A stretch of 63,534 nucleotides of DNA, filler included, from Platydemus manokwari (lineage: Eukaryota): assembly GCA_037951405.1 (NCBI GenBank). It is 6 parts of 6 records of this genome, joined end to end, with 100 filler letters (N's around TTAATTAATTAA, not from the genome) between each part and the next. Parts side by side here need not be neighbours in the genome. Positions count along the whole stretch, not along the records: positions 1 to 9,424 come from JBBMOY011251096.1; 5 more parts are not named here. One strand, given 5' to 3'. Positions 87-53,184 of this stretch are shown piece by piece. Position 1 is the first letter of the stretch; each line of letters begins with the position of its first letter. Below the pieces are notes generated by a model. That model saw only the letters and a list, made by a program, of their open reading frames with translations, did no database searches and had not been told where the DNA came from. Made by a program: the position numbers and the translations under genes.

Positions 87-386
87 GTTCCGAATTACTA
101 TCGCCTCTTTACAATGAATCACTTTAAGAAAACATCAGAAAATGTGGCACGACAGATATGGGGACGATTTGCTGCATTCGGAACTTTCGTTACCGGATGT
201 ACAGACATATACGTTATATTTGTGATAATCAAAACAGTAGTACATCAAATAATGACTACTTATCAGTTGTATGAAGTTTTCGGATGTTCTACAAAACTAC
301 TTTTTGGAATTTGTCCGATGATAGTCAACCAGGTAATGCACAAAAGGCATAGAACCGAGGTCGAAACTGGTAATGCAATTACTTAA
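87..386 (+). pseudogene. env: C-terminal membrane-proximal/TM region of a chuvirus-type class III fusion glycoprotein (env-like)
   Basis: Frame open from 87: VPNYYRLFTMNHFKKTSENVARQIWGRFAAFGTFVTGCTDIYVIFVIIKTVVHQIMTTYQLYEVFGCSTKLLFGICPMIVNQVMHK. It fits the recalled chuvirus G tail pattern W-G-x-F-x-x-FG..G..I..I..IK......Y-x-L-x-x-x-(Y/F)G-x-S-x-x-L. Confidence 0.78.
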
Positions 387-697: not shown

Positions 698-1010
698 ATG
701 ATGCGGGATGACCGAAATCCTCATAAATTATTTCCGATGAAACTTAATCGACACACAGTCATGGCATTAATCGAGACCGGAGCTGGCTCAACTAGTATCC
801 ACCCAAGGGTGCTTAATATGAATGAATTACAAGGCATCGAGAAAACGGATATCAATATTACAGGAATCAATGGAAGCACTTTTTATTACTCGGGGCATTA
901 ACGTGCAAGATGAAAATATGTGGTCAAACCCTAACAGCCTCTGACACAGTATCAAACCTCTGTCCATGCCACTGCGTAGTAGGAAAAGATGTCCTCAGAC
1001 AGCTAAAAGG
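698..1010 (+). pseudogene. Retropepsin aspartic protease, degenerate
   Basis: ALIETGAGSTSI (DTGA motif with D>E), flap-like ITGINGS, and CVVGKDVL (I-L-G-x-D motif) in the next ORF. Confidence 0.88.
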
Positions 1011-1082
1011 CATTGTCTATGAGTGCACAACCGGAACCCTGCTCAAACTCACTAAGGACAAACATGAATGTGGGAATCAATT

Positions 1083-1320
1083 CTATATTGAGGAAGAAAT
1101 TTCAATTACATCTCGAACCGAAACCGTCTGTCTTGGTCAAACCAGCCATGCCAACACGAACCCAGCGTTGGTTTCATGGAAAGGGCATCCATGCCAGTCA
1201 GTGCATGTATTGCTAGAGTACAAGAAGGAAAAATTCCCATACAAATAGCAAATACATCATCAGAGCCGATAAAACTGTATCCATACACTAAATTAGGAGC
1301 AGTAACGGAATTCATAATGG
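1083..1320 (+). pseudogene. dUTPase-like linker domain between PR and RT
   Basis: EEEISITSRTETV...VSACIARVQEGKIPIQIANTSSEPIKLYPYTKLG resembles the degenerate dUTPase-like beta domain of many Ty3/gypsy pol proteins. Confidence 0.55.
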
Positions 1321-1429
1321 AATCTCAAGAGAAATTACCCAGAAAATACTACGGACCAATCGAAGTACACAGTTCGGATATCACTTCACAACAATGTACG
1401 CAGCTCACTAAACTTCTCAACTATTATCG

Positions 1430-2320
1430 AGAAGCTTTTGCGAAGCACGAGCATGATCTAGGAAAGTGTAATCTCATCGAATATAGGATTGAATTACTAA
1501 ACCATCCAATTTGCCAACGAGGATACCTCACACCGATTGCTATAGAAGCAGAGGTACAGAAGCAAATTTACGAATTACTCGAGCAAAAACGGATCAGACT
1601 AAGCTACTCTCCCTGGAGATTGCCTATTGTCATGGTGAAGAAAAAGGAGGGAATTATGTGCATGTGCATCAATTGTCGAAAAGTTAATGAACAAACGCGG
1701 AAGGATAATTATCCGTTACAACTAATAGATGAAATGGTCAACCGAGTTCGTGGAGCAAATTTATTCTTTACTCTCGATTTACTGACCGGGTACAACAACA
1801 TTTTGATGCATGAAGTTTTGATATCCATCACGGCCTTTACCGACAGCAAAGGTTTATGTGAATACACAGTCATACCATTTGTACTAACTGGTGCTCCAGC
1901 CACATTTCAAAGGGCCATGAATCTAATGTTAATGGATGTACATCACGCAATGGTATATATATATATATGACATTATCCTCTACTCAAATGGCTACGAGGA
2001 GCACGAACGAAGTATAGAAGAGGTATTGAAAAAAGTAATTGTAAAGCTGAAACTTATCAAGTGCGAATGGTCATGAAAAGAAGTCAAATATTTAGGCCAT
2101 ATCGTGTCTGGACAAGCAAAGAAGCCTGACCGCGCGTAAACAATACCCTCAACTTTGAACAATCAAAAATGTCCAAGAGTTCCTGGGATTAGTGAACTAT
2201 TTTCGAAAATTTATCCGAAATTGTGCTGCATCGCATAGCCACTTATTAAACTATTACAAAAGAATAAATTATTCCAATGGGAGGAAGCACAGGAAAAGGC
2301 TTTCAATTCTCTAAAACAAT
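1430..2320 (+). pseudogene. pol: Ty3/gypsy reverse transcriptase, frameshifted
   Basis: SPWRLPIVMVKKKEG, MCINCRKVN, DNYPLQLID, TLDLLTGY, TAF, PFVLTGAPATFQRAM, a disrupted YIDD near 1953-1971, KYLGHIVS and FLGLVNYFRKFI. Confidence 0.95.
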
Positions 2321-2322
2321 CA

Positions 2323-2730
2323 TTGATCGCCGAACCAATCCTTAGACACCCAGACATGAGCAAACCCTTCATCATTATGACAGATGCAAGGGGTTACATC
2401 ATTGGTGCAGTTCTGGGACAAATAGACAATGAAGGAAATGAATACGCCATCGCGTATGTCAGTCGCAGATTAAAAAGTCACGAACGAAACTATGCAGTCA
2501 TTGAATTAGAGGTATTTTCCACCGTATACGGTGTAGAAAGGTTTCGAATTTTCATTTATGATCCCCAAATATATGTACTCACCGACCATTGACCCTTACA
2601 GTGGTTGCTACAGCATCGAGACACCGCATCTAGACTCATCCGCCTTGCATTCAAACTACAGCAATACAATACTAAGATATGTTACCACAAGGGAAAGCGA
2701 ATGGCAATGCTGATGCTCTCTCACGTGCAG
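2323..2730 (+). pseudogene. pol: Ty3/gypsy RNase H
   Basis: PFIIMTDARGYIIGAVLGQ, IAYVSRRL..HERNY..IELE, LTDH*PL and GKANGNADALSR. Confidence 0.95.
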
Positions 2731-2989
2731 ACCCGAACACATACGAAATAGATACGGAGAACGTTTTCGCAGTGGTACACACACTGACTCAAAATATCGA
2801 AGTGAGCAAATTACAAAAGGATGATGAAGAAATTCAGGGGTTGTTTATTACAACTGGATCACATTCCTCCGGAATGGGAAACTAATAGGATTATTCATTT
2901 GTCCGCAGAGCCATCGTGCACGAAGTTTATGAAAAAGCACCAAGGGGAAATGGTGTTTGATAAAAATCTGTTGAAGATAGAAGATGACG

Positions 2990-4075
2990 ACAAGAAGCTT
3001 ATCATCGTGCCCAAGGCACTCCAAGAAACGCTTATTCTACAATACCCCGATGGAACACTAGGAACAAATCTTGTCCCGCCTTCAACAAAAATATATATTG
3101 AGAAATATGAAGAATAATGTCAGACAATGGTGCGTATCATGCTAGATATGCCAGACCCGCAGGAATACAGGCAACAAATGTCGAGTCCCTTTACGACCTA
3201 TGCAGATTCCTACTGCTTCCATGGGGATTGTCGTAATGGATCTCGATGGTTTTTTACCACTCAGTAAACTGGGCAATCGCTACATATTAGTTTTTGGCGA
3301 ATATATGACCCGGTGGCCAGAGGCTTATGCAATTCCGGACAAGCAAGCAAACATGGTTGCCAAAATCTTTGTGAAAGAAATTGTCTACCAATACAGGGTA
3401 CCGAAAAAGTTATTAACATATCGCGGGACGGAATTCCTCAACAATACCCTGGATTGTATCAACAAGATGTTTAAAATAACTAAGCTTAACACTACGCCCT
3501 ACCACCCACAAACCGATGGGCTGGTTGAGAAGTTCAATGGAACACTAACAAACATGCTGGCATCCTACACAAGCACCGCTCAGACCGACTGGGATGTCCA
3601 TATAGCTTCCTGTTTATTTGCGTACCGAAATGCTGCTCAAGCCAGCACAGGATACACACATTTCTATTCGATGTATCTGAGACATAGCCATATGCCAATA
3701 GACCTGGAAATAGAACCCAAGCTCTTGCAATATATGGAGAGAGAAGACAACGTGACCGTTATGAAAGAACGGCTCACTGAGGCATGGCAACGAATACGAC
3801 TCTCACTAAAACATCAACAGGAACAAATGAAGGATAAATACGATAAAAATAAGCAGGCTCACACTCAACAGGTTGTATACAAGATTATGTTGGAGACTAA
3901 GGCCTGCAAGAAGGGTATATCACTCAAATTAAGTCGACCTTATAATGGTCCTTACATTATAGAGAAAGCAACCGAGACAAATTTTATAATACGTCCAATA
4001 GAAAAGAGTGATGCCGAACCTATATGGATACATGATAAGACGTCGTTCACACTGAAGCAAAAACAACTCAACTAA
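2990..4075 (+). pseudogene. pol: Retroviral-type DDE integrase with zinc-binding remnant and GPY motif
   Basis: IIVPKALQETLILQY, WCVSC*IC, MDLDG, LLTYRGTEF (second D>Y), TTPYHPQTDGLVEKFNGTL and YNGPYII. Confidence 0.96.
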
Positions 4076-4119
4076 CGAAAAAACCCCACGAACCGGATAA
4101 AGAGAAAGGAACAACTATA

Positions 4120-5287
4120 ATGACAAGTCTGATCACAAAGCAGGGGCACAGATATCCCCTGCTATCAAAACAAATGCCACTACTGATGTTCATGAGCATC
4201 ATTGCATGTTGCCCAGCACACGTGGAGAAATACCCACCGGTAATAGGACCAGTATGGACGTGTAATTGGAAAGCATACTGGCTAACTATCAATGCTCACC
4301 AAGAGCCAAGATATTACTATAGTGCCACATTAATTCGGCGGAACCAGACTGATAAAAAGGTAGAGTTTACCCACCAACAATTGTACGAAAATTTAATCCA
4401 AATGAGACTGTTTTAAACATCATCAGTACTTCTGTTCCTGAGTATTGCTATAACGTAACTGATGAATTTATCAATAGATATCTCTCCTTTACTCGGCAAG
4501 CACACGAGAAGGACGAATTGAGAAAGAGGACACTATTTATAGCCACCAGAACGATGGGTACAGCAAGAAATCTAACCGGTAGCGTGGTTACGCCAGCTAT
4601 CGCTGTCCTCACCATTCTCGATTATCAAGGGAAAGTGATTATAAATTTCCGAGTATCACCTCGCCACTATGTAAAACATTTCAGAAACGACTATATTGAC
4701 AAAGTAAATGAAGCTGATATACTCAATCAATGGGACGAGATATCCTGTATCAAGCAAGTAAACAGGATCGTGGATCAACATATCCTTGTAGGATACAAAG
4801 TAGCAGACATTTTTGAAGTGCTACAAATACCGCCTGATCGCCTTCTAGACATAAGAGACCTAGCAAGAGCGAAATGTATGGCGGTACATGAGCTTGTCAG
4901 TCTCAATCAATGAAGATGTACAAAATCTTGAAAAAGATTGTACCAGAATACGAAATGACAAAGCGTCATGAACTAAGGACCACTAATGCTACGGAAAAAA
5001 TCCGACAAACATATCTCAAACTAGAAGAAAAATCGGAAGATAAATTTACCCCAACAAAAGTGGCACCAACCATACATAAAGAAACAATGATAGATGTACC
5101 CCAGTGCGACATAGATGAAGAAGCCGCGGCGATAGCACTGGATCAACTTATGAATAGCGAGGACATTACTGATGTAACAGATATCAAGATAGAAGATATC
5201 TCCATCGAAGAGGCAGAAGCTAACCTCGGAGAAAATGAGATAAATGCGAATGAGAAATCCTTCCTTCCCAAGCAAATCCACAAATAG
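4120..5287 (+). pseudogene. Post-integrase accessory region: hydrophobic segment, ISG20/REXO4-like DEDDh exonuclease fold lacking catalytic acids (~4518-5045), acidic tail
   Basis: LFIATRTMG, AIAVLTILDYQGKVIINFRVSPRHYVKHFR, KQVNRIVDQHILVGYKVADIFEVL, IRDLA and HELRTTNATEKIRQTY parallel the REX4-family blocks ALDCEMVG, LARVSIVNYxGxVVxDxYVxPxxxVxDYR, VxxxLxGxILVGHAxxNDLxxL, IRDT and HSSVEDARATMxLY in order and spacing. Confidence 0.72.
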
Positions 5288-5642: not shown

Positions 5643-5656
5643 AAAAGAGGAGGAGA
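5643..5656 (+). promoter_or_regulatory. Polypurine tract (plus-strand primer)
   Basis: AAAAGAGGAGGAGA immediately followed by TGTTGTGGGG. Confidence 0.88.
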
Positions 5657-6784
5657 TGTTGTGGGGAACTAATCAGGCCATTTTGACCCAACCAAATTAA
5701 CTAAAAAATAAAAATAAATTGATATAAATTTTATTTTCAAATTAAGCTTCAAATTAAGAAAATAATAATGCCAGAAATTACAAAATATTAATAAAATTTT
5801 TAAATTTGTTTTATTGCATTAAAACTAATTGACATTAAGGTCATTAGGAAAATCCGCATCGAAATCTAAAAATAGAACCTCCGATGAACTGAAAACATAA
5901 GTAACAACACTAGTTGCTATAAATAGACAAGGACTAAAAATAGTAATCTATGCTGTACATATGCTAAAATTAGCAACATATGCTACAAAGCATAGAATGT
6001 TACCAAAATAGCAACAAGATGCATGACTCACAATGACAGAATAGCATAAATACTGGCAGAAAACCATAGCACTTCGCATTTCGACTACCTACAGTTATAA
6101 AATTTTCGCCATCTCAATTCCGTAGCTATTTATTTTTCAATTGTATGCAAATTTGAATTATCAAACTACAAAGAAGTCAACTTTGATTGTATGCTCATAT
6201 GGATCAGCAGATTTTAAAGAAGCTTGTTTTTTATTATATGCCCATTTGGTTCATCAATTTTCGAAGAATTTCATCATGAGTAATTTTATTATTTGTGTAA
6301 CAAATTTCCGACCCACGGCTAATTTTAGTCTTGTGGTCTATTAAAATCTCATAAGCACTTCTGACCGTTCCCCACCTTCACTTTTGTCAAGAGAGGCTTA
6401 TCCGAGAACCTAAGCGGGACGCCCTTTACTGTTTACTTGACTGCACAACTCTTTCCTCCTACAATAGAGTACAATGTCTTGAATATTTTAAACTATTGTT
6501 ATCAGATTTTCGATTGTTACTTAATATATTTTATTTTGTCTTATTTTGTTTTATTCATTATATTTTATTATCATTTATATTTTAAATATTATTTTTACTA
6601 CACCTCCCGAGAGATAAAGCAACAACAACCTCTTATCTGTTTGGAGTCCAGATAAGTTGAAGATCTAAGGCAAGTATTATTTACTCTATTTAAATCCTTC
6701 TGATAAAGTTTCGAGTATTATCTATATCTTTTTTCAAATTGCGCATTTGAAATTTGAACTTATTATTATTATTATTTTAATACA
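5657..6784 (+). repeat. 3' LTR, ~1.13 kb; right end inferred
   Basis: Starts TGT right after the PPT. AT-rich non-coding sequence ends ...TTTAATACA where composition switches to the inverted coding fragment. There is no second LTR copy in the window to confirm the end. Confidence 0.7.
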
Positions 6785-7273
6785 GCCCGACAATCTTTAC
6801 ACTTTGACTCTTCCAACACACGTGCCATCAGGTTCGATTCGTCCATCGCGAGTTTTTGTTTTTGCCAGTCGTTTTACCACTTCTGCCATAAGAGTGACTT
6901 CGCTATCTAGCCTAAGTTTTCCTTGTACGAAGGCATCGTCACAGGCTTCGGGAGATATTTTCACATTTCGTGGTGTGAGTTTGGCATCGTGTACAGATGT
7001 GTGGATGAATTCTATGCAATACTACTCGAATGTCGCTTTAGTGACCCTGCATTGCCTTACTCTGGTCAGGTGAAATTCAATTTCTTGGTAGATATAATAT
7101 TGTTCCGGTTTTTCCTTGTACACCTTGTGAAGTTGTAAGGCCAGACATTCCAAGAGGTCGACCAATGAATAGATCTTGGACAGTTTCGGTTTTTCGCTGT
7201 CATAGGCCGTTAGAATATGTGTTTTTCCCACGAGATTCCAAATCAGTAGAATTTTGACGAGAGTGTTGAAGAA
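6785..7273 (-). pseudogene. env: Signal-peptide-like segment plus N-terminal ~140 aa of a chuvirus-type class III fusion glycoprotein, truncated at the LTR end
   Basis: FFNTLVKILLIWNLVGKTHILT-AYDS..YSLVDLLEC..YYIYQ..VRQCRV..*YCIEFIHTSVHD..ISPEACDDAFVQGKL..DGRIEPDGTCVG, reading through one stop at 7022-7024. It matches the recalled chuvirus G pattern AYDC..SLLDVGEC..QLLQ..QCKI..YCGMHSH..ISREAC...G...GxxxxDGxCxG. Confidence 0.82.
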
Positions 7274-8630
7274 TCCACTGTTTAAACCTCCTAGTCCCTC
7301 GGTAATTGTGGACTGATTTGATCCGAATTGATCCCATTCTCCATAGGTTTTAATCCATGGTCTCAATACATTATTTTCTAACTGTATCATATGATTGGCG
7401 ACTTATTTATACTGAGTTTCTTTGCTTCTGGATGTTGTCAGTATTCGATTGGTCAGGTATGTTAATGTCAATTTGACCCATGCGTTAGTTAGTCCGTCCT
7501 TTGTGAGCTCTCCTAACACTGATTCTGGTTCGGAGCTAGCATAATCTCTAATAGCATGCCGGAGTCAAGGGATAAGCTCCTCGTACCCCTCGGTATTGAT
7601 AGCAGAGAGTTCGCTGTTATAGATTGTCAATGCTCTTTTTTATGCGTTGCAAGCAGGTTTTTACATCCTTGTTGGCTCGTTTGTTTCATCCGCAATGTTC
7701 CTCAAGATTCTCCTTGGATTTGGCTGCTTGTATGTGTTTGTATAGTTGGCGGCAGTTCCTTTTTCTTTTTCTTCTTAGTGCTAGCCGGCAGTTCGTCGAT
7801 TCAGAGCTTGTTATGTGTAATTTTTTCGATAATGACTGAGGGTACATCAGGTTAGGGAATTTCCTCGATATGCATGGGCAATGCTTCCATTTGATTGTTA
7901 TGTTTCCGTATTTAGTGATTGGCGTCTCTATCAACAGTATATAGTGGTGGAATTTCTTCTTACAGTGGCTGAATTTCCGTTTGCAGATGTTCCTCAAGGT
8001 TCTCTTCTGCTTGTGGTTCCCTTATAACCGCGATTCTCCTGCATTGGTTGGAGTGGATAGGTACTTGTAAGACCTTGAATGTCATTTTATGTCCAGATAG
8101 ACATCCCACGTCCACTAGGTATTCGTCATCATCGACGGGGTTTTCCCAAATTTTGATGGCGAACGGTTTCTCTATAGATTTGTCGCGTTTGATATCTTGT
8201 CTTACTCGCCTTACCTGGGTAAAGCAGGGATCCTGTTTAAGCCAGTACCCATGTTCTGAGGTGCGAATACATAAATTGACGGGGTCTTGTCCCAAAGAGT
8301 TATTGCGTACAGCTAGCCCATATCTCTGTAGAAATAATTGAGCCTCACTTCATTATGTAGTCATGCGTTCCAATAGCCTCGCTAATATCGGGGCGATCTG
8401 TGTCAATACCTCGGTGGGTACAGGACATAAATGTGTTTGTAAATAAATGTTTTATTTTTTCATTCTCTATTTCCGGCTTTTGTACCTCGGCCAACAATCT
8501 GTTAGGAATTGCGACATTTGTTTGCTTTCCGCTTTCGTTAACTCGATTGTGGCTAACGCGTTTTCCGTCGTGAGGACTGTGGTTAACCGAAGAGCAGTGT
8601 TGTCTTTTGCTGCATCCCCTAAAGCAGCAA
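7274..8630 (-). pseudogene. Degenerate ~450-codon reading frame of unknown family leading into the glycoprotein
   Basis: ORFs 8467-8682 and 7960-8295 share one frame broken only by point stops, continuing to ~7740. After about two frameshifts the frame YNSELSAINTEGYEELIP*LRHAIRDYASSEPESVLGELTKDGLTNAWVKL runs into MIQLENN. GC content is clearly above the host background. Confidence 0.65.
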
Positions 8631-16146: not shown

Positions 16147-18460
16147 ATGGAGGATCAAAAACTTTATCCAATCCTTGATAATTTTAATAATCCAAGTGCT
16201 CCAACAGATTCTCAGAATATGAGTCCAGCCATTCTGGGTTATAAAAATAATACATTAAAAGTAAATATTAATAAACTTAGAATTGAAAATTTTATGAATG
16301 AAAAAAGAGTTTTAGAAGAATAATTATTTTGGGTACACCTCCAGCCTATCAGCCTAAATACATTTTTTTTGCACAACACTTTGTACATATATATTTTTGC
16401 ACAACATTTTGTACAGATACATATCCCGAAGAAAAACATTCATAACTGAGTATATAACCCTATCAAATAACCGCAAAGCATTAAGTAAAAAAAACCTTGA
16501 TTATGGATTTGCGACTAAAGGAATCGTGCCTGAGGACGCCAGTTATTCAGTACAGAGGTCGATGCATCGAACGCCAAACAATCAGCCTCAAGAATCAGCC
16601 CTCAGCTCTCCAGTTATGGCATAAACAATTATCTGATAACTGTGTACTCAACATGAATGTTAACAATTTATTTTTGCTTCTTATTATTATGTACGATTTA
16701 AAAACAATTGTTTTATTATTAGTGTTTTGCTAAAAAGAAACAAATATTTAGCATGTGTATACAATTTGTGTATTCCGACGGAGCAAGTAGCAGATTGGGG
16801 AATGTGGTCCGACAAAATGACAAAATAAAATATATTAATAATTATAAAGAGTAAGCACATAAATAAATAGAGCGGAATAAATTAAGCTATCAGAATAAAT
16901 AAATAAATAACAAAAAAACAGTTAAATGAAATGAAATAAATAAATTAATTAAGATAAATAAGAAAAATATTTAAATATATATAAATATATAAATAAATGG
17001 AAAAAAATTAATCAGTTAGATTAGATCAAAATTAATTAATTAAAATAATAAGCGTGTAAATATACCAGATGACAGCAGTAATTGAGCGATAAGCAGGTGA
17101 CGATACGGGAACCGACACCTATAAATGCGGATGTTAGTTTTGAGCACCACACAATAAAAAATAAACACAATTCTTACAGTTCGGACGAAGCTAAGAAGAT
17201 TACAACTATTGCTGTTTCGAAACAAATTAATTAAAGGATATTATCACGCTCAACCTTGGTACGCTATCGGAGAAGCATTTTGCACATTGGCAATTCGTTT
17301 ATCATTGTTGGAGTAATAAGCAAATTCTGGAATTCAAACCTAGTAAGAGCTTTTCCAATAGTCATTTATCATTTTCTTCAAACGCTTACTCTTTAAAACT
17401 AACTTATAACTAATCATTAATTTTATGATCATCAATTTTATGATATTATTTCATTTTGTCGGTAAATAATGTCCCCCATTTTGCGCAATTATAATTAGCT
17501 TCGTCCGTTCCACGTATTTACCTGTTAATCGCTAAGGCGAGTTACGGGGTATTTGATAAAATTTTGTGTTCTCTTTTTATACTAATTGTTATACTTCCAT
17601 TTCTTAATTAATAAATATTTTTACTTTAAATTCGATATTTTGATTTCAGAACTAGTTAGCATTGCACATAATCGATACGGTCATCGTTTTACCATAAAGC
17701 GTTCATTTGTGACGTTGTTTATATTATCATAAGTTAATAACTAAGTTTACGAGACTATAGTTGCATTGTTATAATATTGGTCATTGAAACACTAACTCGC
17801 TTATCTTATTATAAGTTGCTAATTAAATCCGGGTTTATGAACTTCTCATTATTTTCAGGCTAGAGCAACTTCAGTTCCTCTGCGCTCAATTATTAATTTT
17901 AAGCTTGAATCATTTTCCAGTAATTCGGTCATCATACCGGTTACTGAAGCCCCTAGAATCAGTAAAATAAAAAGTCAATCGCAACCGAAAAAATCACTTT
18001 TTATTTAATAATTAGATCATTATAATAAGTTAAAAAAATAAATGGACTTTTTAGTATATTAACAACTATTTTACCAACTGTTTCGGGTATTGGAATTTTA
18101 CCCACAATTACTTTATATTGTGGTGTAGTAGTTAGTTTATTTACAATAGTATAATCTGTTATGGGGGAATTATTTCATGTTGGATTAAGTAGTAAAAAGA
18201 AAAAGATTTAAATGAAGGTTTGAAAAGCGATTAAATTATATCGATAAATTATATTTATTTCAAGTAAAAGCTTTGGAGGATAGTATATTAACTGATGAAG
18301 AAATTATTAAAGCTAAAGATATAATCAAAGATTTGCGTAAAGAAATTTTGAAAATTAAGGAAAATAATATAAAATTAGAAAATAAAATACAAGAAGCAAA
18401 TAAAGAACATAAAAAAGAATTAAAAGAAAAATATCGTGAAGAGTTAAAACATGAAATAAA
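16147..18460 (+). pseudogene. Polinton PW-type (GasderminX-like) membrane protein gene split by a 1.68-kb insertion
   Basis: MEDQKLYPILDNFNNPSAP...RVLEE*L, then the insertion, then DHYNKLKK..ILPTVSGIGILPTITLYCGVVVSLFTIV..KALEDSILTDEEI. The LYP/PSAP start, hydrophobic hairpin and KALxDxxIxxEE motif are typical of this Polinton ORF. Confidence 0.6.
16327..18006. mobile_element. Unclassified 1680-bp insertion flanked by an AATAATTA direct repeat
   Basis: AATAATTA at 16319-16326 and 18007-18014; removing the insert rejoins the Polinton reading frame. Confidence 0.6.
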
Positions 18461-18900
18461 ATGGAAGAAAATTTATATCTATAATGTTCATTTTGTTTTC
18501 GTATCAAAAATATTAAATGTTTTTATGAAAATAGAAATCAATGTAAAGTATGTCTTCATAAGAAACAGGTTAAATATCGAAATCAAAAATATCAAACAGA
18601 TTCACAACATAGATTTAGAAAAAGTATTTCTGATAATATAAAAAATTCTTTGAAAGGAACAAAATCTGAAAATACTGTAAACTACCTTGGTTTATCGATT
18701 GAGATATTCAAAAGACGGATTGAATTTCAATTTAAAAGTGATATGTCATGGGATAATCAAGGTACATATTGGCATCTGGATCATGTAATTCCCGTGTCAT
18801 CGTTTAATTTTGATAACTAGGAAGATAAGTGTAATAATTGGATTATTTAAGACCTTTAGAAGCTAGTGAAAATTTATCAAAAAGAAATAAAATTGATGAT
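18461..18900 (+). pseudogene. CxxC zinc ribbon plus HNH-type endonuclease of the kind found in large DNA viruses
   Basis: CSFC..CKVC..NYLGLSIEIFKRRIEFQFKSDMSWDNQGTYWHLDHVIPVSSFNF..CNNW..LRPLEASENLSK, with 2 stops and 1 frameshift. Not in the supplied ORF track. Confidence 0.85.
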
Positions 18901-19027: not shown

Positions 19028-20990
19028 TTATATTACGTTTTCAAAAGGTGTAATATTAATACCATTCCCACAAATAAGTCCCTTTTTGTCAAAATTATGT
19101 AAAGCTAATTTATTTGTTTTTGATGATTGAATATCATGTTTATCAGAATATATTATAATAACATTTTGATAATTATCTTTGTTATTAAATAGGCAATCTT
19201 TAAATAAGTCCATATTCATATTTTTATTAATTACGGCTTTTTTAATTACCTTATCCTTTATTTTTGGTTTAATCATAACATCTAATTGCTATCCATTCTG
19301 TTAAAATCTTTCCATTTAATTCATCTTTAAATTTCCCCGGTACTTTTTTATTTATTGTGTTATATAATGAATTATCTTTATTATAATCTGAGAAATCAAA
19401 TTCAATCATTATTTAAATCTTTATAAATATCCTCTGTTTTAATATTTAATATGTATGAATCTGTATCCATATATAATATTTCAATATTTTTTTATATTTA
19501 GGTTTTAAAATACTATAATAAAATTCATATATTAATAATTTGCTTAATTATAGTATAAAAAATTCTAAATAAATTGTTTTACTTAATTTTACCTGTTACT
19601 TTTGATAATGTGTTGCAAATAAATCATCACTGAATTTTGCGAATCTTTTATAAGTTGGTTTTGTATTATGTTTTCTTGCTTTAAGTGGATCGCTAAATAA
19701 TTTTATATTTTCATGTTTTCTAATATTGTCGATAGTTTCACCAAAAAAGCATTGTTCATTAGTTTCCAGATATCTTTTTCAAAATCACTTGTTCCTCTTG
19801 TTCTCAGATTTGTGTCTGATTGAATGTATTCTTTCAACCATTCTTTTTGAAAACACATTATTATTCGATTTACCCTTTTTAATTTCATTCCTGTTTTTAA
19901 ATAGAATTTTAGATTTCTATAGTGAACAACATAATTAGTTTTATCTATTTAGTCACTAATTAATAATTCAGATAGAGGTATTTTTTCTTTTTTAATTTAT
20001 TCTTTTGGAGTGTTACTAAATATTTCAAAATTTACTTTCTTTTTTGTATATTCAAGATCAACTTCTAACACCATTGCCTATTTTGAATTTGGGGGTGTTT
20101 GATTTAATGTTGATGTAAATTCTTCTAAATTATTATTTATTTCAATTGAGTCTTCTTGATGAACCGATTCAAATTTTTCATAGGGTAATGGTTGTCTGAT
20201 AGCCCAACCCTATAAACTATTTGCATCGATACACATTAAGTAATTCTTATCAAATATTTCTGGTGATATTATTTCTTTGTAATTCATAATTTCTAATAAT
20301 TTCTTTGCTTCATATTTATCACTTATTTTATAATTTTCACAATCGGGATTAGTAAATTTACTATTCGCTCTAACATATCTTTTTCCCATTACTGATGATA
20401 ATCCTCCTCTTATTCCTTGTTCGCACATTTCACACATTGTTTGATCTGTAAACAATTCTAAATTTATACTAGTTTCTTTTAATCCTGATTCCCATGTTAA
20501 TGATGGTGATGAAACATAATGAACTGGATCTAAATTTCTTTGGGTCATATTATTAGTTCAAAAAGATTCGATTGAATCAGCTAATATGTCTACATCTTGT
20601 TTTAAATATAGAATTGTATAATCCCATAATGTTCTACATTTGAATATATTCCTCGTTTGTTATCCCACTTAAAATTAATTTAGAATAAAAGCATTCTATT
20701 GGTAGTAAATTTGTTTCAATTATTATTTCTCGATTTCTATTAAATCTGGATCTCTTGAAATTAATTTTAAATAAATACAAGAAGGTATTCGATTAGTTAA
20801 AGCCTTTGTTACTTTACCTTTTGATTTATTGGTTGTCTAATAACACATTCGATATCAGCAACAATTATAAAAGGAACTGGTATTTGATGGTTATAATTAT
20901 TAAAATTTAAGATATTGCTATAGGCAGAACTTCGTTCATTATTATGTTTACTTGGCATAACTACTCTTGAGATTTCCCTTCCATCTTTTC
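19028..20990 (-). pseudogene. polB: Protein-primed family B DNA polymerase (pPolB), fragmented with internal deletions
   Basis: VPFIIVADIEC (~20850-20885), LDPVHYVSSPSLTW, GIRGGLS, IDANSL*GWAIRQPLP, KLMNNAF, ILYMDTDSY (~19455-19480) and VPGKFKDE. Confidence 0.93.
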
Positions 20991-25200: not shown

Positions 25201-28200
25201 GTTTATGTCGCAATATGAGTAATCTCTAACTATGATCGAAGAAGCGTGATTTAACAAGCAATATAATTATACATATACCAATTCAAAATCAACCCTTTAT
25301 TGTATTATGGACATAGCAGCAGTCAAAGCTAGGCGATGAATAAAATTGATTGTTATGATGCAAGCTTGGCAAAATTATACCTTTTTGAAACATTTATCAT
25401 TCGACGTTTGATTTGAAACATTAGTTATAAACATTTTTCTGATGATATAAATTAACATTTTCAGAGTTCCACTTGACAGTGAATTGAAATATTTTTGTGA
25501 CTTGTAGTTTATTTAAATGTTACACAAATTAATGAGAAATTTGGTTATAAATACAATTCTTTAATGTTAAATCATGTAATAATGGACGTAATAATAGTTT
25601 TCAAAGTTGCCGTTCGACAATAACTTGACGAAATATAAAAAATCTCAAAAACTTATTCAATAAACAATCATAAACAATTATCAATCATACTAATAATATC
25701 AATAATACTTATAGGAAATTATTCCCTGTTAAGACGAAAACGACCAAGAGATCCACATGTTGCATCTAGTGGGATCTGGATAGTGTGTAAATAGTTATTA
25801 TTTGTTATCTATAAACAATATAGCTGTTATTTATAAACCATAATAAATATTATCTATAAACAATAATGATTATATATAACTACGATTAAAATAAAATATA
25901 GGATAAGAGAAAACGAAAAACAATAATAACAAATGATAAAAAAGATGGAATATAATAAAAACAATGGCACGGTAGAGATCTCAACATTCAACATTCAATG
26001 GAATCGATCAAAGATATCAAAACCAAACAATTATAAAAGCATCATATCACGAATTCATAATGTCATCAATTATGCAATAAGTCGATATAATCTGGAAATA
26101 TTTTATAATTACAGGTAATGGACATCAAGGAAACACAAAAGCCAACTATTATAAGAGGTTTTACAATGCCCTTCAACAATCCATAGTTAAAGGCACAATC
26201 AACAGAATAAGGATTAAAGAATATCCTAAAGTGGACTATATCTCTAATAAATTAAAAGTCCACACAGAAATTAATCCACAGGTAACCCACGGTATAACAA
26301 AGACAATATTCAGGTTTGATAATGTATGATAACCAACCTTTTAGAAACATACCAAAATTATCAGTGAAAGTTGGAGCCGCGGAGTTCAAAATAAAAGCTC
26401 TGTTCTCATTAAAAATCAAATCAAATCATGAATCGTCCAGGAAATGGAGACTAATATCAGAGAGCTGTTTTAATTCTACCAAAAATCCGTGGGACCTATA
26501 TTATGTATTGTAATTTTTAAATTTTAATTGTTTGTGTTTTTGTTATTGTCAAATAAACTTGTACTTTTTACAGAGTTTAATTTATCGGCTGAAACCCAAC
26601 AAATTAATCTTAATTTTATAATAATAAATTCATCATTTTACAAATAAATGTGAAATAGTATATTATCATAGTATATTCAAAACGATTAGTTTATTTATTC
26701 ACAATTGTCCATTTATTTATTTTATCATCAACAGTTTTTTGTTGAAAATATATATTTATAATTTAATAAAATAATTAATTATTCATTTTTATTAATGGTC
26801 GATCCTTAATCAAACATTTTATTTTTTTATTATATTGCAAAATTAACTGTTGCATGTTTTGAAATTTAAAAAGTTTTATTCAAGAATTTTAAAATCAAAT
26901 TAAAACATTGTTTTAATATCGTATTTCCTAGGTCACGCAAATGAATATTACTTTATTTAATCTTTTGAAAAAATTATTTTTGTTATTATGTACATTTATG
27001 AGAATATAAATTGTGTTGCATTTCCATTGTTGTTTTGAAAATGTTTTAAAATTTTTCTGCAAATTTTTAAGTTGTTTACTGATTACGTTTAATTGTAAGC
27101 AGATTAATTTATACATTTTTAAAGATTATCTCAAACAATGATAGACGATATGATTTTGTATATTCATCCTGTTGAGATGGATATTGATTGATTCTAAGAT
27201 CAGAAGGTAATTAAAAAAATTCCTTCTGATTGCTCTAAATTAATGAAAATAAATATAAATATGATAACCACATTAATAGAACATCTTCAAACATTTTTGC
27301 AACATTTCCTGGATAGAATTATGAAAACTATATAATATGTTGAAATAGAATTAGAATAATTAAATAAATTGTTGGCAAGAATCTCGTAAAGAGAATTACG
27401 TTAACGGAATCAAAATTAAAAATGAAGTGCATTTATAATGCCTGTTAAAATATTTCAGAAATTTTGTCGTTTAATAAACTTAACCTAAACTGATTAAAAA
27501 CACTTGGTTACTTGAATATTAGGCCCAATCACCTTTAATCTTCCAGTGGTACAAGAGGTCTCCTACAGCATAAGAGTCGACCATGAAATCATCCTTACCT
27601 GAATAGAGTCCATCACAGTAAACCTCTCATTAATAATTAGACTAAATTTAATCATACTGTGGTTATGTTTTGTTTTCGTGGTTTTTATTATTTTTCCCAT
27701 AGATTTAATAATCTAAAGTAGCTCTATACTAATTCATGACTTACCACAATTTAGTATTTATTGATGATTATATTTCAATTATAAAATTATAGTTTTTATT
27801 GAAATCCGACTCCAGTACGTGTGGGTTTTTTTAGAGAATTAAAATAAATATCAAATATTACAATAAAATATAATTTTCAAATCAAAATCAAATACAATAT
27901 TGATTAGAGACAATACAATAATTAATAGCAGAAATTATGGCTGATTAATAGCAGCTAATAATCGAGGATTTGATTTAAATAATTAATTTGATTTATTATT
28001 GTGTCAGAGGAATTGTTAAGGATGAAACATAATGTATTGAAAACAATATTTGTTTACAAATTGAATTTTCTTTCGTTAGTCGTTTAACACTTAGATGTGC
28101 TTCTGAATTTTTTTAAGGCGTTCTAAACTGGTTTGATCAGCTATTTATACTGGGTTTGATTTTCCTTGTTTTCATATCTTATTATTATTTTTCTATTTTA

Positions 28201-33724: not shown

Positions 33725-36700
33725 CTAGTGGTTCACAGAGTGGCTTGTCTGTTGCCTGGAAAATAGTTGAGGATCGTTACCGCTGACATTTGTAGGCGCG
33801 CACTGTACACTTTGAACTCGCATTGGCATCATATTGAAATTACCTTGGAAATTACCTAGAAAAACATATTTCGATGCTGTTATAATTTTTCATGAAATAG
33901 AAAAAAAATCGATGAAATTTGTAACAATTCAGCTGCAGTGGAACAAGATAACTAATAATAATTTAATATTCAGTTTATATCAATGGAATTTCAATAAAAA
34001 AATAACCACAATTTTACCAAATAATACAATTAAATACGTCAATATTTACAATCACGAATAAATACCATTTCGAAATAATTGTTGAATAATTAAGAAAACG
34101 AAAAAATATTAGAAAATAATGAAAGAAAAATCAAAGCCTACAGAAATCGAAACTGATTGTCAAAACACAATCAATGTGAATTTATCCATATCCTAAGTTG
34201 ATAAAGAAATGAATGCTCTCTTCAAAAATTCAGAGTCTCAATAAAATATGCTATAATTCAATTCCACTTCCAGAAAACAATTATAATTCTAAGAGTGCTT
34301 ATAAATTATTTATAATTATAATTATATACATATATTGGTATGGAGCTATGTAATTTGATATTATATTCTCACATTGGTGAGAAACGATAACATATCTCGC
34401 TTAACATATATTATATTAAATATAAATTAATATATTCGACCAACGGTGAAGACATCGATTTTATACGGTTATATTTCTAATTAATCAAGACAAAAACTGA
34501 GGCTGGAGCAGCTAATATCTGTTTCAAATCTCACACACTCGAATATTAAAAGAGTCATTTATTACTCAGATGTGAATCATTTGGACTGGTATAACTGGAA
34601 AAACCATTCCATTCTGAATTTCTAATTCCTGCTACAAAAGAGAAAATATTTTTCTAAAAATCCTTACGGACGAAATTACCTGAATTCTCGTTCATTGAAT
34701 GAGATCTGTTATAACCAGATGAACGTATACCAGTGTGTGAGATATCAGACGGGCCGTCACAGAATGCAGACTGAGCATTCTTCCAAGAATGTGATCCATG
34801 CAGTGACTGAGAATTTATATCATTGAACATTAAACCACCATTTGAGTAATTGAATTCGTTATGATAATTGCTTCCAGAGGAAATCTTAATTAGAAAAATA
34901 CCATTTTATATTGTTTGGAATGATTTTATTTTAATTTCATATGGTAAAATTCTACTCAAAGATATATATTAAAAATTGAATATAAAAAACCATATGAATT
35001 ATCCGATAATAAACAAATGAAATATTCTAGCTGGTATAGAGGATAATAATCAATAAAAATGAATCTATGGTTGCAAATATTATTATTAAAGCCTCTTGAA
35101 GCGAAAAACTCGCATAAATTATCAAATATTCGTAATTGACAAATTGTCTTGAAGACAAATAATAAACATATTTTTTTCAAAATTGAATAATGTATATGTA
35201 TAATATCAATTAAAATATCATGAAACCATTTGCTTAATTTATATTTAATTGATGCGATTGATTGAAAAAAAGATATTATTTGTCTTCTATTGTTTTATTT
35301 GATAAGATTGATTTATATAAAGTGTGAATAATCAATAATGATAATTTATCAAAAATGGGATATTTTCTATAATATATCCTTCACAATATCATTTCTAATA
35401 ATGGATGAACGTGAGAGAATTGATTTAATACAGAACATATAAAAAGCTTTAAAATTTAAACAAATAATGTTAACATTATAATTCTGGAGAAAATCAAGAC
35501 AAGTTGAATGAATCTAGTTGAATGTTAGATAATTGAACAGATTTTATATCAACAATTAATGATAGCGCGCGCGCACGAGTCAGAATCAATGGAATATTAT
35601 TGATAAAATTGAAAAATATAAATGAAGAACAAAATATTGAATGGATAGATAATAGATTTGTGTCGATTGATTATATAAAATATCAAATATAAGAATAATA
35701 TTAAATATATCCAGATATCAATATTTACAAGCTCATAGAGAGAAATGAATTCAATGATAAGCCTCAATGAAACCATTAATCAATCAAATATTGGATTTGA
35801 TAAGAGATTATATGAGACCAAATCAAGCTTTAGTCAAGCAAATATATTGAAATAATGATTTAACATAAAATTACCTGATTTTGACAGTTATAATTGATAG
35901 GAAACTGATTATTAAATTGATTATGATTGATTCCCATTTGTAGATCTGGGCTTGAATGCTGATTCTGGTACCTGGGATACATATCCACATTAGTTTGATT
36001 TAATAACATAGTCATTATATCATTTGATGATGGGTCACCAATACAATTATTATTGCTAGTGGACTCAAATCCGGGAGGAGGAGATGGAAAACCGGAAGAG
36101 ATTGATTGTACTGCAGTTGAAGTGCTAGGAATAATATTGTTTGAATTTCCCATCAGATTCAAACTGCTCATTTGCTGATTAAGTCTGGTTTCACTCGGTG
36201 ACGGTTTATCATGAATGAATGGTTGTCCCGGCGCACGCGAATTTAAAGTGAAAAAGTCATTATTTGATTGCATCATATACTCGTGAGGATTCTGTCGTAG
36301 CATATTACGTTGTGGAGGTGCATATAAAGAATCGCTGGAGATTAATTTATTTGGCATGTAATTATTAATTCCTGGGGTCATTTTCTGACGGTTTTCTGAT
36401 GCGATGATTTCTGCTAAAGCTTGTCGAGAAACATTGATTGGATCAAAGTCAATATCAGCCGTATCTTTGAATTTTTGTTCATAATTTAAATTGTTTTTGT
36501 CAGATCCAAATATTCTATTGAAATCCATATCTGGTCGGTACTGATATTGATTATAATTTAATACCCCATTGTTATTTGCTTGTTGATTGATATTATGATC
36601 GTATTGCTGATTGATAGGTATATTATTCTGCGAATTCAGTTGATAAAAACTTTCTAACAGAGAATTGGTAGTATCTGGATTCATACAATTTAAGAATGAC

Positions 36701-39700
36701 GATTCTGATACACGACAGAGAGGCGAACTGGAATTTAGTGAACTTGTAAGAATTTCACTGTTGTGTGAAACATTGGATTGAGAATTATCCATTAAATCGT
36801 GGGGGTAATTATCTTTCGAAACGCTTGATAATATTTGATTTGAGTTTGCTTTACTGATTGACGCTTTTGAATTATTGATGTCACCTGAAACCATATATAC
36901 TTTACTAGCGTCATTTGGATCAGTTCCAATAGGAGTCATTTGACCTGCACCAGGCCGCTGAGATTTGGTAGTCGTTGTTAATATGCTGGTAACAGTTGTT
37001 GATGTGCTAGTCAAACTGGGCTTTCTTTGAGTAGGTGTTACGCAATCGGTATTGGTTACAGATGTCGTTGTCGATGTGCCAGTAGTGGTACAAACATTGA
37101 CAATAATAAGTTTTAAAATTTCATGATACTCTTGAATTAACTGATTCTCATATTCAGTATGCTTTCCATTTGCCATATCTTCTTTTGTAAAACTAGCGGC
37201 TTGATCACCCATCTCATGTAAGTACATACAATCTATCTTAGTGCATTTTCGATTGCGCAAGAATTGGCTGCAGTACTTTGTTGTTCCTAATGATAATTTG
37301 ACCGCACGACCATCAATTTCTAATTTTTTCAAGTCCACAAGAGTCTTAAGCGCATCTTCGTTTCGGTGGTATGTAACATAAGCACTTAAACATGATGTTC
37401 CCTAATAAACATAATATTGATATGATATTATGCATCAATTTGACAATATATCTCAATAAATTTATTAATAAAAACAAATATAATAATTATCCAAAAATAT
37501 TCATTATGTAGGAAAGATTGTAAAAATTAAGAAAAAATCCAAACAATATGTCACAAATTTCATTCATATTAATATACTAGAAAACAATCAATGAATGAAA
37601 ATAGAACAAATTCAATATAATTTGCTGAAATGAAATCCATTCTTAATGAGATATGAAACATGATATATATTGTTCAAGAAAATATGTAAACTATTTTCTA
37701 AACACGAACATAATTAATAGTTTGATTGTGAAATTTCAAAAATCCACTCAAGTTATTTTAGGAGAATTTTCATATCCATTCAACCTACTACAATGAAAAC
37801 CCTTTTAGGGTATGGAATTGATGATTTATGGACTAAAAAAATTTAATTTTCAATAGCTTTTGAAATGACATGAAATGGAAATCTACAAATATAATTAATT
37901 ACAAATTTTCATCCTATAGTTGATATGGGAAAAAACGTGTCAAACAAAAATTGTCTCGATAATTCCATTTGATTATTATTAATGATATTATAGTTATCAT
38001 ATTAGCAATCTTGGCTTTTATTCAATTATTAAAATGCCTTCAAAATTAAATGGGATATTCCCAAAAATTGATCATAAATCATAGGGATAACAATCTTTTC
38101 CCATTTGATTTGCTGACGATTTCTTATAAAAAGAAAAATTTATACAAATGAAAGATAATGAGTGATTTTTAATGAAAGCAAATATAAATCTAGAAAATCA
38201 AGCTTTATCGGATAATATTTTTATATATTAATAAATTAACACGAGAAACAATATAAAATTGAAATAATAGATTATTCATTCCGTTATTGTTGTTCCAATA
38301 AAACATTATTATAATGAAACTATAAAATATTATTTATAAAAAATTTATTAATTAAATGAATGATAATACATTTTTGATTATTTATTATCAATTTATATTT
38401 TATTAATTATTAAATAATTTTAAAAATGATAATAAATTTAATAAAATAATATCATAAACAATTTAAAATTAATAAAATCAGACTCATAGAAACAGATTAA
38501 ACATATCTACAATATAAATGGGTAGAGAAACAATGAAATCATTTGTCCTTAACTCACCTGCGGGCCTGGAAAGGTCTGATTTTGATTGATAACGATTTTA
38601 TAAACTTTTCCACATTTCCCGAAATAATCCGATCCCTTCAATAGTTCCACTTCTTCAGCCATACGCATCGGGAGACCAACAACGAATATCAAATTCTTCT
38701 GCAATACCCGATATTCTGATAGATATTCTTTACCTTCTGGTGTGGGTTTACCTTTTTTCGGGCAAACTTTTTTGGAACTTTTTAATTTATTCTTAATTCT
38801 GAAATAAAACCAAATTTAATAGTAAATCCCATCACAGAGCATTGTTGTTTCTGGTCTTTAAAGTTAATTGTTTTGGTGAGAATATCACTCAATAAACCTA
38901 CTATATGCATAATGTTGTTTTTTTGTTTAATATTTCCAAAGAAATGAACACAGAAGACACACATGGATATTAATATATGTATATCCCAACAATAAATTCA
39001 ATAATTTCTACTTCAATACCATTGAAACAATACCGACGTAACAACAAACATTGCATACACTTTGCTCAAGAAATAAACATGTTAGTTATTAAAAATAAAA
39101 AATTTCCCATCAACTTTGTCGGGGACCAAAAAAAACATTTCAATTTTCCATTTCGATGCGAAATTCTCAACAATAAAAACCATTTCAAGACTATGAGAGA
39201 ATTGATAAATGTAAATTAATATTTACTCATTTAATAAACTATTTAGGTGACAAAAGTACAAACAAAGATATACAAAACGTCGGTTAATTATTGTTAATAA
39301 TTAATGTTAAAATACATTTTATGAGTAGTATCGAAATGAATTTCAATTTAATATCAATCGTACATAACATTATTATTAGAAAAATGGATAATAATAATCC
39401 TTAAATAGGTTATTTAAATATAGAAAAATTTTTAAAAAATAAATCCTTACTCTTCTTCTGTACGAGGTTTATATGAAGCCGGATGCTCAGAGTTGTATGG
39501 CTTAAATCATATATTACATATTTTGTTAAATGAGATTTGAAAAACAATACTTTTCGGCAAGCAGGACACAAACCATTTTCTTCATTAATAATTTTATACC
39601 AACAAAATCTACAAATCTGTTTTGGTAGGAAATGAAAAATTTCAAAACTAATATTATTTCCATAAAAATCAACTAACTTGATATCGGCAAGGACATGGAT

Positions 39701-51690: not shown

Positions 51691-53184
51691 TCAATTGGTG
51701 AGATTCGTCGTTATCATTGGCTTCATCATACACTTCTTTTTGTGGTAATTATACGATGCATTCCAAAAATAACCCTTTCCACATTTTTCACAACAGTATT
51801 TTGCTTGATCGGAATGCTTGCCATCCAAATGCTGTTTGAGGCTGATCTTTGTCATGAATCGACTTTCACAGAAATCACATTCAAAAGGCTTTTCTTCGTG
51901 CAATGTTGTCGTTTGAGACGGCGGCGCTACACCGCCAGTTGGAAGAGTTGGTGGTGGCAGGCCGATATTGTCTGCATTGGATAGAACTGGAAAATTCGGC
52001 AAACTGGGAGCGTTGGTTGAATTCGGGATGAAGTTTTGAATGACAGAATGTACTGATGGATTCGTTATTCCACTACCATTGACGGATTGCATATTTGATA
52101 TTAATGGTGGATTCTGCATTGATTTATAATCGATAATTTTCTGTAAAATCATTGCTCGTGCTGATGCAATACATGTGCGTTTGTGTTCGTACATATCTGT
52201 CATATTGGTGGTTTTGAAGCCACACAGACATTGATCGGTAATTGGATGATGAGAGAACACTTTTGGTGACTGCGGAATTCGAGATTCAGTGTGGTTGAAT
52301 GACGTACTGATGGCTGAATAATTGAAATTGCCTTTTTTGGTGTTGTTTGAGTCTTGAGAATCGTTCAAAGCAAGTTTCCGTTTACTGCACTGCTGTTTGT
52401 GAGTATAGAATTGTGGTGGCCAACGAAATCGTCGGCCGCAATATTCACACTCATGCCTGGGAGGAAAGTGCAAATGTTTGTGTTGATCGAGAAGACCTTT
52501 TGACTTGAAATTCTTTTCACAATGTTCGCATTCGTATACTTTGCCTGTTCTTTTGGGTTGATCTTGACTGTTTGGAGAAGACGTATTAATGGAAATTGGA
52601 AGACATGGTTTTTCAGAATGGGAAGAATAATCCATATTGATACCGGTTATTGAATAATCTGCTACTCCTATGGGTTCTTTGCTTTCACTCTTTACGAGAT
52701 TGATTGGATTTCCATAATCCAATGGCAAATCGTCTGAGTCTTCATTTTGAATCGGTGTCTGTTCTGTTGAATGAGTTAATGGACTGCGAGACTCAAAGAT
52801 AGGTTCTGTTGGTTCCATTTCCTCATCTTGGATGCTTTCATCTTCTGGAACTTGTTCATCACCGAAGCCATTTTGCTGCAAATCGGTTGCAGCTATAGGG
52901 CATATGATATAATGAGCCAAAAACTGGGACATGCTATTAAAACACTGATTGCAAGTACATGGAAAAGTTCCACTGAGGTCGTGACATTCGTCGAAATGAT
53001 TTTCAATTTCTTGCTGACTTGAAGATGCGTATTTGCATTCTGGACAAACGAATCTGTTCGTACAATTAAGAGTAGGTGTGTTTTCTTGATTCACAGTAAT
53101 AGAGGAAGAACTAGAATTTGAATGTTTATCTATTGAGTGTTGCATAGCAGCTGAATTTAGTTCGATATTTGATTCTTCATTGAC
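51691..53184 (-). CDS. Multi-zinc-finger (C2H2/C2HC) transcription factor, main exon; 5' exon unresolved
   Basis: 484-aa ORF with seven fingers, e.g. YECEHCEKNFKSKGLLDQHKHLH and FECDFCESRFMTKISLKQHLDGKH. The frame stays open to an acceptor (TTTTCATCAG) ending at 53185. Confidence 0.92.
   Translation of the reverse strand, partial: VNEESNIELNSAAMQHSIDKHSNSSSSSITVNQENTPTLNCTNRFVCPECKYASSSQQEIENHFDECHDLSGTFPCTCNQCFNSMSQFLAHYIICPIAATDLQQNGFGDEQVPEDESIQDEEMEPTEPIFESRSPLTHSTEQTPIQNEDSDDLPLDYGNPINLVKSESKEPIGVADYSITGINMDYSSHSEKPCLPISINTSSPNSQDQPKRTGKVYECEHCEKNFKSKGLLDQHKHLHFPPRHECEYCGRRFRWPPQFYTHKQQCSKRKLALNDSQDSNNTKKGNFNYSAISTSFNHTESRIPQSPKVFSHHPITDQCLCGFKTTNMTDMYEHKRTCIASARAMILQKIIDYKSMQNPPLISNMQSVNGSGITNPSVHSVIQNFIPNSTNAPSLPNFPVLSNADNIGLPPPTLPTGGVAPPSQTTTLHEEKPFECDFCESRFMTKISLKQHLDGKHSDQAKYCCEKCGKGYFWNASYNYHKKKCMMKPMITTNLTN

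Follow-up and report, generated by a model that had tools for sequence, protein, structure and literature searches.

A Decayed env-Carrying Ty3/Gypsy Element of Platydemus manokwari Bears a Predicted ISG20L2/ISG20-Type Pseudo-exonuclease Whose Catalytic Residues Were Probably Lost in a Distant Ancestor

Introduction

What is the gene that lies behind the integrase of a retroelement from Platydemus manokwari, having the features of a DEDDh exonuclease and none of its catalytic acids, and did it lose these acids before or after this copy was inserted? The question arises from a stretch of 63,534 nucleotides (filler included; assembly GCA_037951405.1), joined from parts of six records and referred to here as the window, which is AT-rich, eukaryotic and interrupted by scaffold gaps. 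A preliminary description, made from the sequence alone, had placed a catalytically dead ISG20/REXO4-like domain at 4518..5045 and had proposed that it is an ancestral pseudo-enzyme. Most accessory genes carried by invertebrate retrovirus-like elements have yet to be characterised, and such genes hint at host countermeasures. The window copy is a fossil, and its value lies in its intact homologues, in which one two-domain protein comes in two branches, one active-looking and one dead but long conserved, so that enzyme and binder can be tested against each other.

Results

Detection of the domain. The gene, here called ORF3, is read on the plus strand in two frames. ORF A (4356-4913, 185 amino acids, stop codon at 4911-4913) contains the first part of the pseudo-exonuclease at 4407..4913, comprising a linker and the Exo I and Exo II regions, and was matched over residues 18-175 with E 2.9e-49 by a profile of 44 homologues, built without the window and run against 2779 six-frame segments of the window. 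ORF B (4892..5287), in a different frame, continues with the Exo III region to about 5045 and then an acidic tail, and was matched by the same profile with E 0.0015 and by a dead-branch profile with E 9e-5. In a shuffle control the score of ORF A was reached in 0 of 500 cases, as was that of ORF B, taken over its first 52 residues. The domain is thus present at 4518..5045 as had been described, in two frames, with its homology starting upstream of 4518, near 4407.

The homologues came from a full HMMER scan of 1,835,955,588 proteins with ORF A, which gave 44 matches at E≤1e-3 and seven at ≤1e-10, all 26-37% identical to ORF A, the best being P0090 (E 4e-22, 31% identical); the six top-scoring homologues of the window all belong to the dead set described below. 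A word-indexed homologue search yielded none among 36 candidates and, with the dead-branch alignment, only P0090 among 5524 candidates; locus scans of viral contigs and GTDB genomes gave no relatives, and ORF A or ORF B alone, searched against Pfam and PDB sequences, gave nothing relevant. Seven loci were obtained, all from the active branch. Elsewhere in the window, the stretch 26081-26326 (plus strand) weakly matches the start of the N-terminal barrel found in the family (E 0.38 and 0.05); tblastn with 72 homologues returned nothing there, and the match is probably due to chance.

Family and fold. Pfam RNase_T (PF00929) is matched at E≤0.1 by 22 of the 44 homologues. When compared with the PDB, the profile of 45 rows (the window and its 44 homologues) finds ISG20L2 with E 2.7e-33, ISG20 with 1.5e-20 and SDN1 with 1.8e-18, and a profile built from 14 dead rows alone still finds ISG20L2 with E 2.5e-16. 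The fold itself was predicted for P0090 (mean pLDDT 78.8), and that of the window follows by homology to P0090; single-sequence folding of ORF A gave a pLDDT of 35 and was left unused. Foldseek ranks ISG20L2 and ISG20 at the top for the P0090 model, which superimposes on ISG20 (VIA) with Z 17.1 and rmsd 2.9 over 161 of 168 residues. As judged from these alignments, the window domain is a homologue of the DEDDh ISG20/ISG20L2/REXO4 branch and not an active member of it, and the ISG20/REXO4-type fold proposed for an ORF behind a retroelement integrase is borne out.

Lost catalytic sites. In ISG20L2, Asp183, Glu185, Asp267, His322 and Asp327 are each described as essential in the available text of PMC10899777. 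At the former Exo I D-x-E the window now reads A-T-R (4542..4550, plus strand), with Ala63 (4542-4544) at the Asp site and Arg65 (4548-4550) at the Glu site in alignment A1, and the former Exo II Asp is Ile152 (4809..4811, plus strand) in the alignment columns, Asp151, one residue ahead, being the sole acid near register; both replacements are as had been read before. The former Exo III H-x4-D is now L-x4-A in ORF B (4973..4990, plus strand), with Leu (4973-4975) at the His and Ala (4988-4990) at the Asp, so that the Exo III Asp noted earlier as missing is joined by the His. The alignment of ORF B is weak, and its L-x-T motif agrees with other dead homologues, 6 of the 12 that cover the Exo III His site also having Leu there. 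Catalysis by the DEDDh mechanism is, from these residues, very unlikely for the window protein.

The host element. The window begins inside the env gene, the 5′ end of the element lying outside, and at 87..386 (plus strand, as are all features of the element given here) a viral fusion glycoprotein is represented by a C-terminal fragment (Pfam PF24664, Monjiviricetes_fusion, E 2.6e-14 / 5e-14, profile positions 522-609). This is followed by an aspartic protease region in two frames at 737..1149 (PF13650/PF13975, E 1e-4 to 3e-4, and tblastn of P0002), by reverse transcriptase and RNase H at 1158..3072, interrupted by stops and frame changes (RVT_1, E 1.8e-10; RT_RNaseH_2, E 1e-31; seven stops in the 1984-3072 piece), and by an integrase at 3071..4033 (rve, E 7e-5; one stop) with 44-53% identity to 14 of 89 pol polyproteins. 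Behind ORF3, a polypurine tract at 5643..5656, read from the sequence and like the purine-then-TG boundary 3′ of ORF3 in one of the seven loci (L001), leads into a 3′ LTR at 5657..6790, which starts with TG at 5657 and whose end is approximate. The Ty3/Gypsy order of protease, reverse transcriptase, RNase H and integrase is thereby present, as is the succession of polypurine tract and TG-LTR; a second LTR copy was not found within the window. The domain had been said to lie where env normally sits, which is right as to position; the element's own env lies upstream of the protease, and ORF3 is therefore not an env replacement.

This copy is decayed. Its pol falls into five frame pieces with eight stops in total (P0002 rows), and a search for dUTPase (Pfam, E≤1) on ORFs 826-1245 and 1092-1967, where the copy is decayed, gave no match. 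Summed contig depth in one public run amounts to 130-1,370 in the internal region versus up to 23,500 in the LTR, single listed contigs having 12-25; such depth does not equal copy number, and its pattern fits a multi-copy family with solo LTRs. Adjoining the LTR in opposite orientation is a second decayed multi-copy fragment (6790-8620, minus strand), which holds the N-terminal part of the same fusion glycoprotein type (PF24664, E 2.3e-9, profile positions 5-155) behind an unidentified coding stretch and may be the 5′ part of the same or a related element. Within it, 7022-7402 on the minus strand was considered as a second DEDD copy and rejected, the sequence being env (PF24664).

Between integrase and ORF3, the ORF list contains an open frame with a hydrophobic stretch (4039..4416), which by eye is like the tails of relatives and may form the beginning of the membrane-protein tail found behind their integrase; a profile built from seven relatives' tails gave no match to it. 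In the pol relatives P0001-P0014, the in-frame cargo after the integrase is varied and includes additional aspartic-protease domains, in P0008 ankyrin repeats, and a beta-rich ectodomain between a signal-like stretch and a membrane anchor. The ectodomain is fibronectin-III-like by eye, with Pfam giving only fn3_2 at E 0.69, and it seems out of the ordinary for pol to be fused to a surface protein. The best integrase relative, P0001, is labelled as coming from a Turicibacter metagenome-assembled genome and is likely mis-binned eukaryotic DNA. A fusion of the exonuclease domain to pol was also considered and rejected, with no match in the tails of the best 17 pol relatives (15 of them long enough to search) nor in 89 whole proteins, and with ORF3 being separate in locus L003.

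Further along the window, the stretch 18216-18820 resembles by eye part of an HNH-type endonuclease and 19654-20557 part of a protein-primed DNA polymerase, both known from Polinton-like elements. Host exons at 35860-37401, 51691-53232 and 58101-58637 (minus strand) by eye resemble, respectively, an RRM gene of CNOT4 type, a zinc-finger gene of C2H2 type and a gene for a nicotinic acetylcholine receptor subunit.

Architecture of intact relatives. In 28 of the 44 homologues, about 150 residues stand N-terminal to the nuclease, and hhalign finds this part homologous across the two branches, dead and active (probability 100 over 335 columns). The barrel fold was read from the whole P0090 model, of which the N-terminal part (range 6-150) matches ALKBH6 with Z 10.0 and rmsd 3.5 over 138 aligned residues, ALKBH7 with Z 9.1 and OsALKBH1 with Z 8.8; Foldseek on the same part also finds prolyl hydroxylases, cupins and viral oxygenase domains. 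The model thus predicts an AlkB-like double-stranded beta-helix as the N-terminal domain of the relatives. The metal motif of AlkB and the 2OG-Fe(II) oxygenases is H-x-D/E...H; the 28 rows show no conserved H-x-D/E pair, and what they do conserve is a single His (25 of 28) and, well away from it, a single Glu (24 of 28).

In the window copy the family's N-terminal barrel is missing, and three frames of 4001-4482 hold no remnant of it. One contig from another copy fits the window up to 4396 and another fits it from 4409, each with about 65 unaligned letters beyond, so that a deletion in the window copy at 4396..4409 is likely; the same positions are bridged by a contig identical to the window. 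Locus L003 gives the context of an ORF3 of active type: the last 22 residues of P0010, a protein whose integrase is 50% identical to that of the window, are followed by a tail of hydrophobic stretch, ectodomain and membrane segment (1-1245) and then by a separate ORF3 of active type, and in L005 a comparable tail (2-973) stands ahead of ORF3. Through the layout of L003, ORF3 is tied directly to a related pol in one of seven loci, the others being too short or uninformative. Given the frameshift, the missing N-terminal domain and the stops in pol, we are confident that the window copy makes no working protein.

Age of the loss. Among the 45 rows, 28 keep D-x-E and 17 (the window and 16 homologues) are without it, each of the latter retaining at most two of the five sites; where a D-x-E row covers all five columns, all five are kept (25 of 25), with Asp or Glu at the third. 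Judged by these residues, the family has both active-looking and dead branches. One homologue, P0097, has gaps at Exo I and was placed among the dead rows on account of its Exo II column and where it falls in the tree. In a tree calculated without the catalytic columns, 14 dead rows, window included, fall on one side of a branch (support 80/86, and 84% of 200 bootstrap trees); this 14-row dead branch is not starred, the root is the host-like P0113, and the trees without catalytic columns omit three of the 45 rows (P0114, P0115 and P0126, which have long branches, one being apparently out of frame). A quick tree requires two changes and places the window within an 11-row dead group with SH-aLRT 93; a first tree, which included the catalytic columns, was not relied on.

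The dead rows are only 18-67% identical to one another (median 26% over 91 pairs), and long open frames of 435-609 amino acids are kept in 8 of the 16 dead homologues. Their scaffold is retained, with P-R in 17 of 17, R-D in 15 of 17 and D-E in 15-16 of 17 dead rows, in contrast to free variation at the former catalytic columns. Because the dead homologues are divergent, have long open frames and keep the scaffold fixed while their catalytic columns vary, we strongly favor a single old loss, after which the scaffold stayed under selection. Within the active branch, L001 compared with four other loci has saturated synonymous sites (pS 0.74-0.90) with pN of 0.23-0.48 in both domains. Two side observations concern the sequence set: the active branch (27 rows) has Glu at the third site in 13 of 27, resembling the rotifer DEED motif, and the clusters of P0096 and P0121 contain 24 and 7 members, respectively; many of these come from contigs 15-17 kb long that may represent whole recent elements.

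The explanation opposed to an old loss is ordinary decay, in which an active nuclease lost its acids by chance after the window copy had inserted. It would accord with the state of the copy elsewhere, namely eight pol stops and frame changes, and with the frameshift inside ORF3. However, the nearest homologues with long open frames are also without the same sites, the L-x-T motif at Exo III is common to the window and the dead homologues, and at the Exo II codon the read-table rows listed contain no difference, four well-covered differences being listed at most 100 bases away. Ordinary decay is by now largely refuted and we hold it to be extremely improbable. The proposal of an ancestral pseudo-enzyme is thereby strengthened, with 16 divergent homologues being without the same motif and grouping with the window when the catalytic columns are left out. 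Intact D-E-D-D copies, which the preliminary description had said would instead point to an active nuclease, do occur, in the sister branch (25 of 25 complete rows) and not in the branch of the window.

Discussion

The reading to which we incline, with moderate confidence, is that ORF3 is the broken accessory gene of an env-carrying Ty3/Gypsy element, that its catalytic residues were likely lost in a distant ancestor, and that its intact relatives are likely non-cutting RNA binders that shield or chaperone element RNA. The putative ligand would be RNA, held in the old 3′-end groove without metal, a step on which we consider the balance to be even; the purpose, which we propose more hesitantly and regard as rather doubtful, would be to keep host exonucleases away from the genomic RNA or its 3′ end. 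Conserved dead DEDD domains as a rule bind without cutting. PML PXL is one such RNA-binding pseudo-exonuclease (PMC13659232, available text). The available text of PMC5785220 describes Exuperantia and Egalitarian as binding RNA via inactive or dispensable Exo domains, and Maelstrom and EXD1 are cited as inactive DEDD proteins in that of PMC5408684. Antiviral models for ISG20 are reviewed in PMC9157404, the available text of which offers no direct support for a decoy role.

The sequence signs that bear on RNA are mixed. The pair His108 and Arg110 (4677..4685, plus strand) includes the column of ISG20L2 Arg226, a residue that holds the last nucleotide according to the available text on that enzyme. 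His is present at the first of these positions in 11 of 17 dead versus 0 of 27 active rows, and Arg or Lys at the second in 8 of 17 versus 0 of 27. The Arg226 column, being Arg in the window, is thus favorable, and it is not basic in 9 of 17 dead rows. Unfavorable is the contact made by ISG20L2 His262: the window has Tyr at this column, and His occurs in only 4 of 17 dead rows. The net charge also counts against the RNA reading, since dead and active rows show no difference in it when the catalytic columns are set aside (p=0.27, 12 versus 25 rows). An apparent gain of basic surface in the dead branch (median +7 versus +2) was discarded, as it vanished once the catalytic columns were removed.

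These mixed signs leave some room for a dead two-domain protein that binds protein and not RNA, acting as a scaffold or decoy for partners of REXO4/ISG20L2-type nucleases or for the element's own Gag/Pol. Such a role would sit well with the lack of a gain in basic charge and the patchiness of the RNA-contact residues, with conserved positions that are common to the dead and active branches, as expected for fold and domain packing, and with both domains being without catalytic motifs. It has no known partner, however, and does not account for Arg or Lys at the terminal-nucleotide column in the dead branch alone (8 of 17 versus 0 of 27), and we consider it unlikely. A small-RNA silencing suppressor, a role raised in the preliminary description, which would hold the 3′ ends of siRNA or piRNA or block their trimming, appears less likely again: the closest matches are the rRNA-processing ISG20L2 and ISG20, and nothing in the data points to small RNAs, against which stand the small-RNA-degrading nuclease SDN1 as third-best PDB match (E 1.8e-18) and the suggestion by Rodriguez et al. 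of a silencing role for rotifer ORF3s, where the inactive Maelstrom and EXD1 are noted as well (PMC5408684, available text).

A remodelled active site, in which the branch-specific His and the conserved D-E and R-D pairs support some other chemistry, could be read from His108 (11 of 17 dead versus 0 of 27 active rows) and from the persistence of D-E in 15-16 of the 17 dead rows. Either pair is also frequent in active rows, however, which suggests a structural role, none of the five catalytic residues is replaced by a conserved one, and six dead rows are without the His; this reading strikes us as improbable, more so than either of the preceding two. Protection or chaperoning of RNA is therefore ranked first, a protein scaffold second and a silencing suppressor third. 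Going beyond the RNA-binding reading, one may speculate that a clade of env-carrying invertebrate elements brought a nuclease of ISG20L2 type and a barrel of AlkB type together in one accessory protein, and that one branch became a double pseudo-enzyme, a counter-defence factor that caps element RNA against host exonucleases or RNA-modification surveillance. We think this scenario improbable as a whole; if true, Exuperantia would have a counterpart on a mobile element, one whose active and dead versions could be compared directly.

Comparison with Known Systems

Exonuclease ORF3s as such are known already. The rotifer LTR retrotransposons Juno and Vesta, and the Terminons, carry an ORF3 of DEDDy type, RNase D/Rrp6-like, with its invariant residues intact and the motif DEED (PMC5408684 and PMC5718144, available text). 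The window gene is like that of Juno and Vesta in being an ORF with a 3′-5′ exonuclease-type fold between pol and the 3′ LTR. It differs in that its family is of His type (24 of 24 active element-type rows that cover the site), has an AlkB-like barrel, and includes a branch without catalytic residues. The enzyme-or-binder question was left open for the rotifer DEDDy ORFs. No paper was found that reports a DEDDh, REX4-type or AlkB-plus-exonuclease ORF in Gypsy elements, and the available text of PMC3985635 shows no such exonuclease family; the DEDDh type and the dead clade are thus new to the literature that we searched, Repbase, subscription journals and supplements being places that may hold an earlier annotation.

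As to the element itself, the closest parallel is the planarian Burro/GYPSM1 Gypsy, in which an env related to mononegavirus fusion glycoproteins stands upstream of the protease (PMC6431247, available text), just as the window env (87-386) precedes the protease (from 737), and ankyrin repeats are present in the close pol relative P0008. Burro-like features include a giant polyprotein with gag, BIR, BCL2 and MATH, and a dUTPase-like segment that separates protease from reverse transcriptase; the comparison with the window covers env onward. In the available text of PMC6431247, no exonuclease ORF after the integrase is named for Burro/GYPSM1.

The best profile and fold matches are human ISG20L2 (7yw5), ISG20 (1wlj) and Arabidopsis SDN1 (5z9x), and the Arg226 column is kept in the window. 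Compared with these enzymes, the window gene is on a mobile element, has its five catalytic residues and His262 replaced, and has relatives that add an N-terminal barrel and an acidic tail. In having a DEDD fold without catalysis it is like Exuperantia, Egalitarian and PML PXL (PMC5785220 and PMC13659232, available text), and Exuperantia superimposes on the P0090 model with Z 10.1 and rmsd 3.2 over 157 aligned residues. These three, however, are host proteins from other DEDD branches, and the partner domain in Exuperantia and PXL is SAM-like, not AlkB-like. For the barrel, the nearest counterpart is the AlkB ORF of a Phalaenopsis Ty3/Gypsy element, which likewise represents a 2-oxoglutarate oxygenase-type fold as an extra Gypsy ORF (PMC9289625, available text). 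The orchid AlkB is reported there to be an active m6A demethylase in vitro, whereas the barrel of the window's relatives is without a conserved H-x-D/E and forms one protein with a nuclease fold, and the window copy does not have it.
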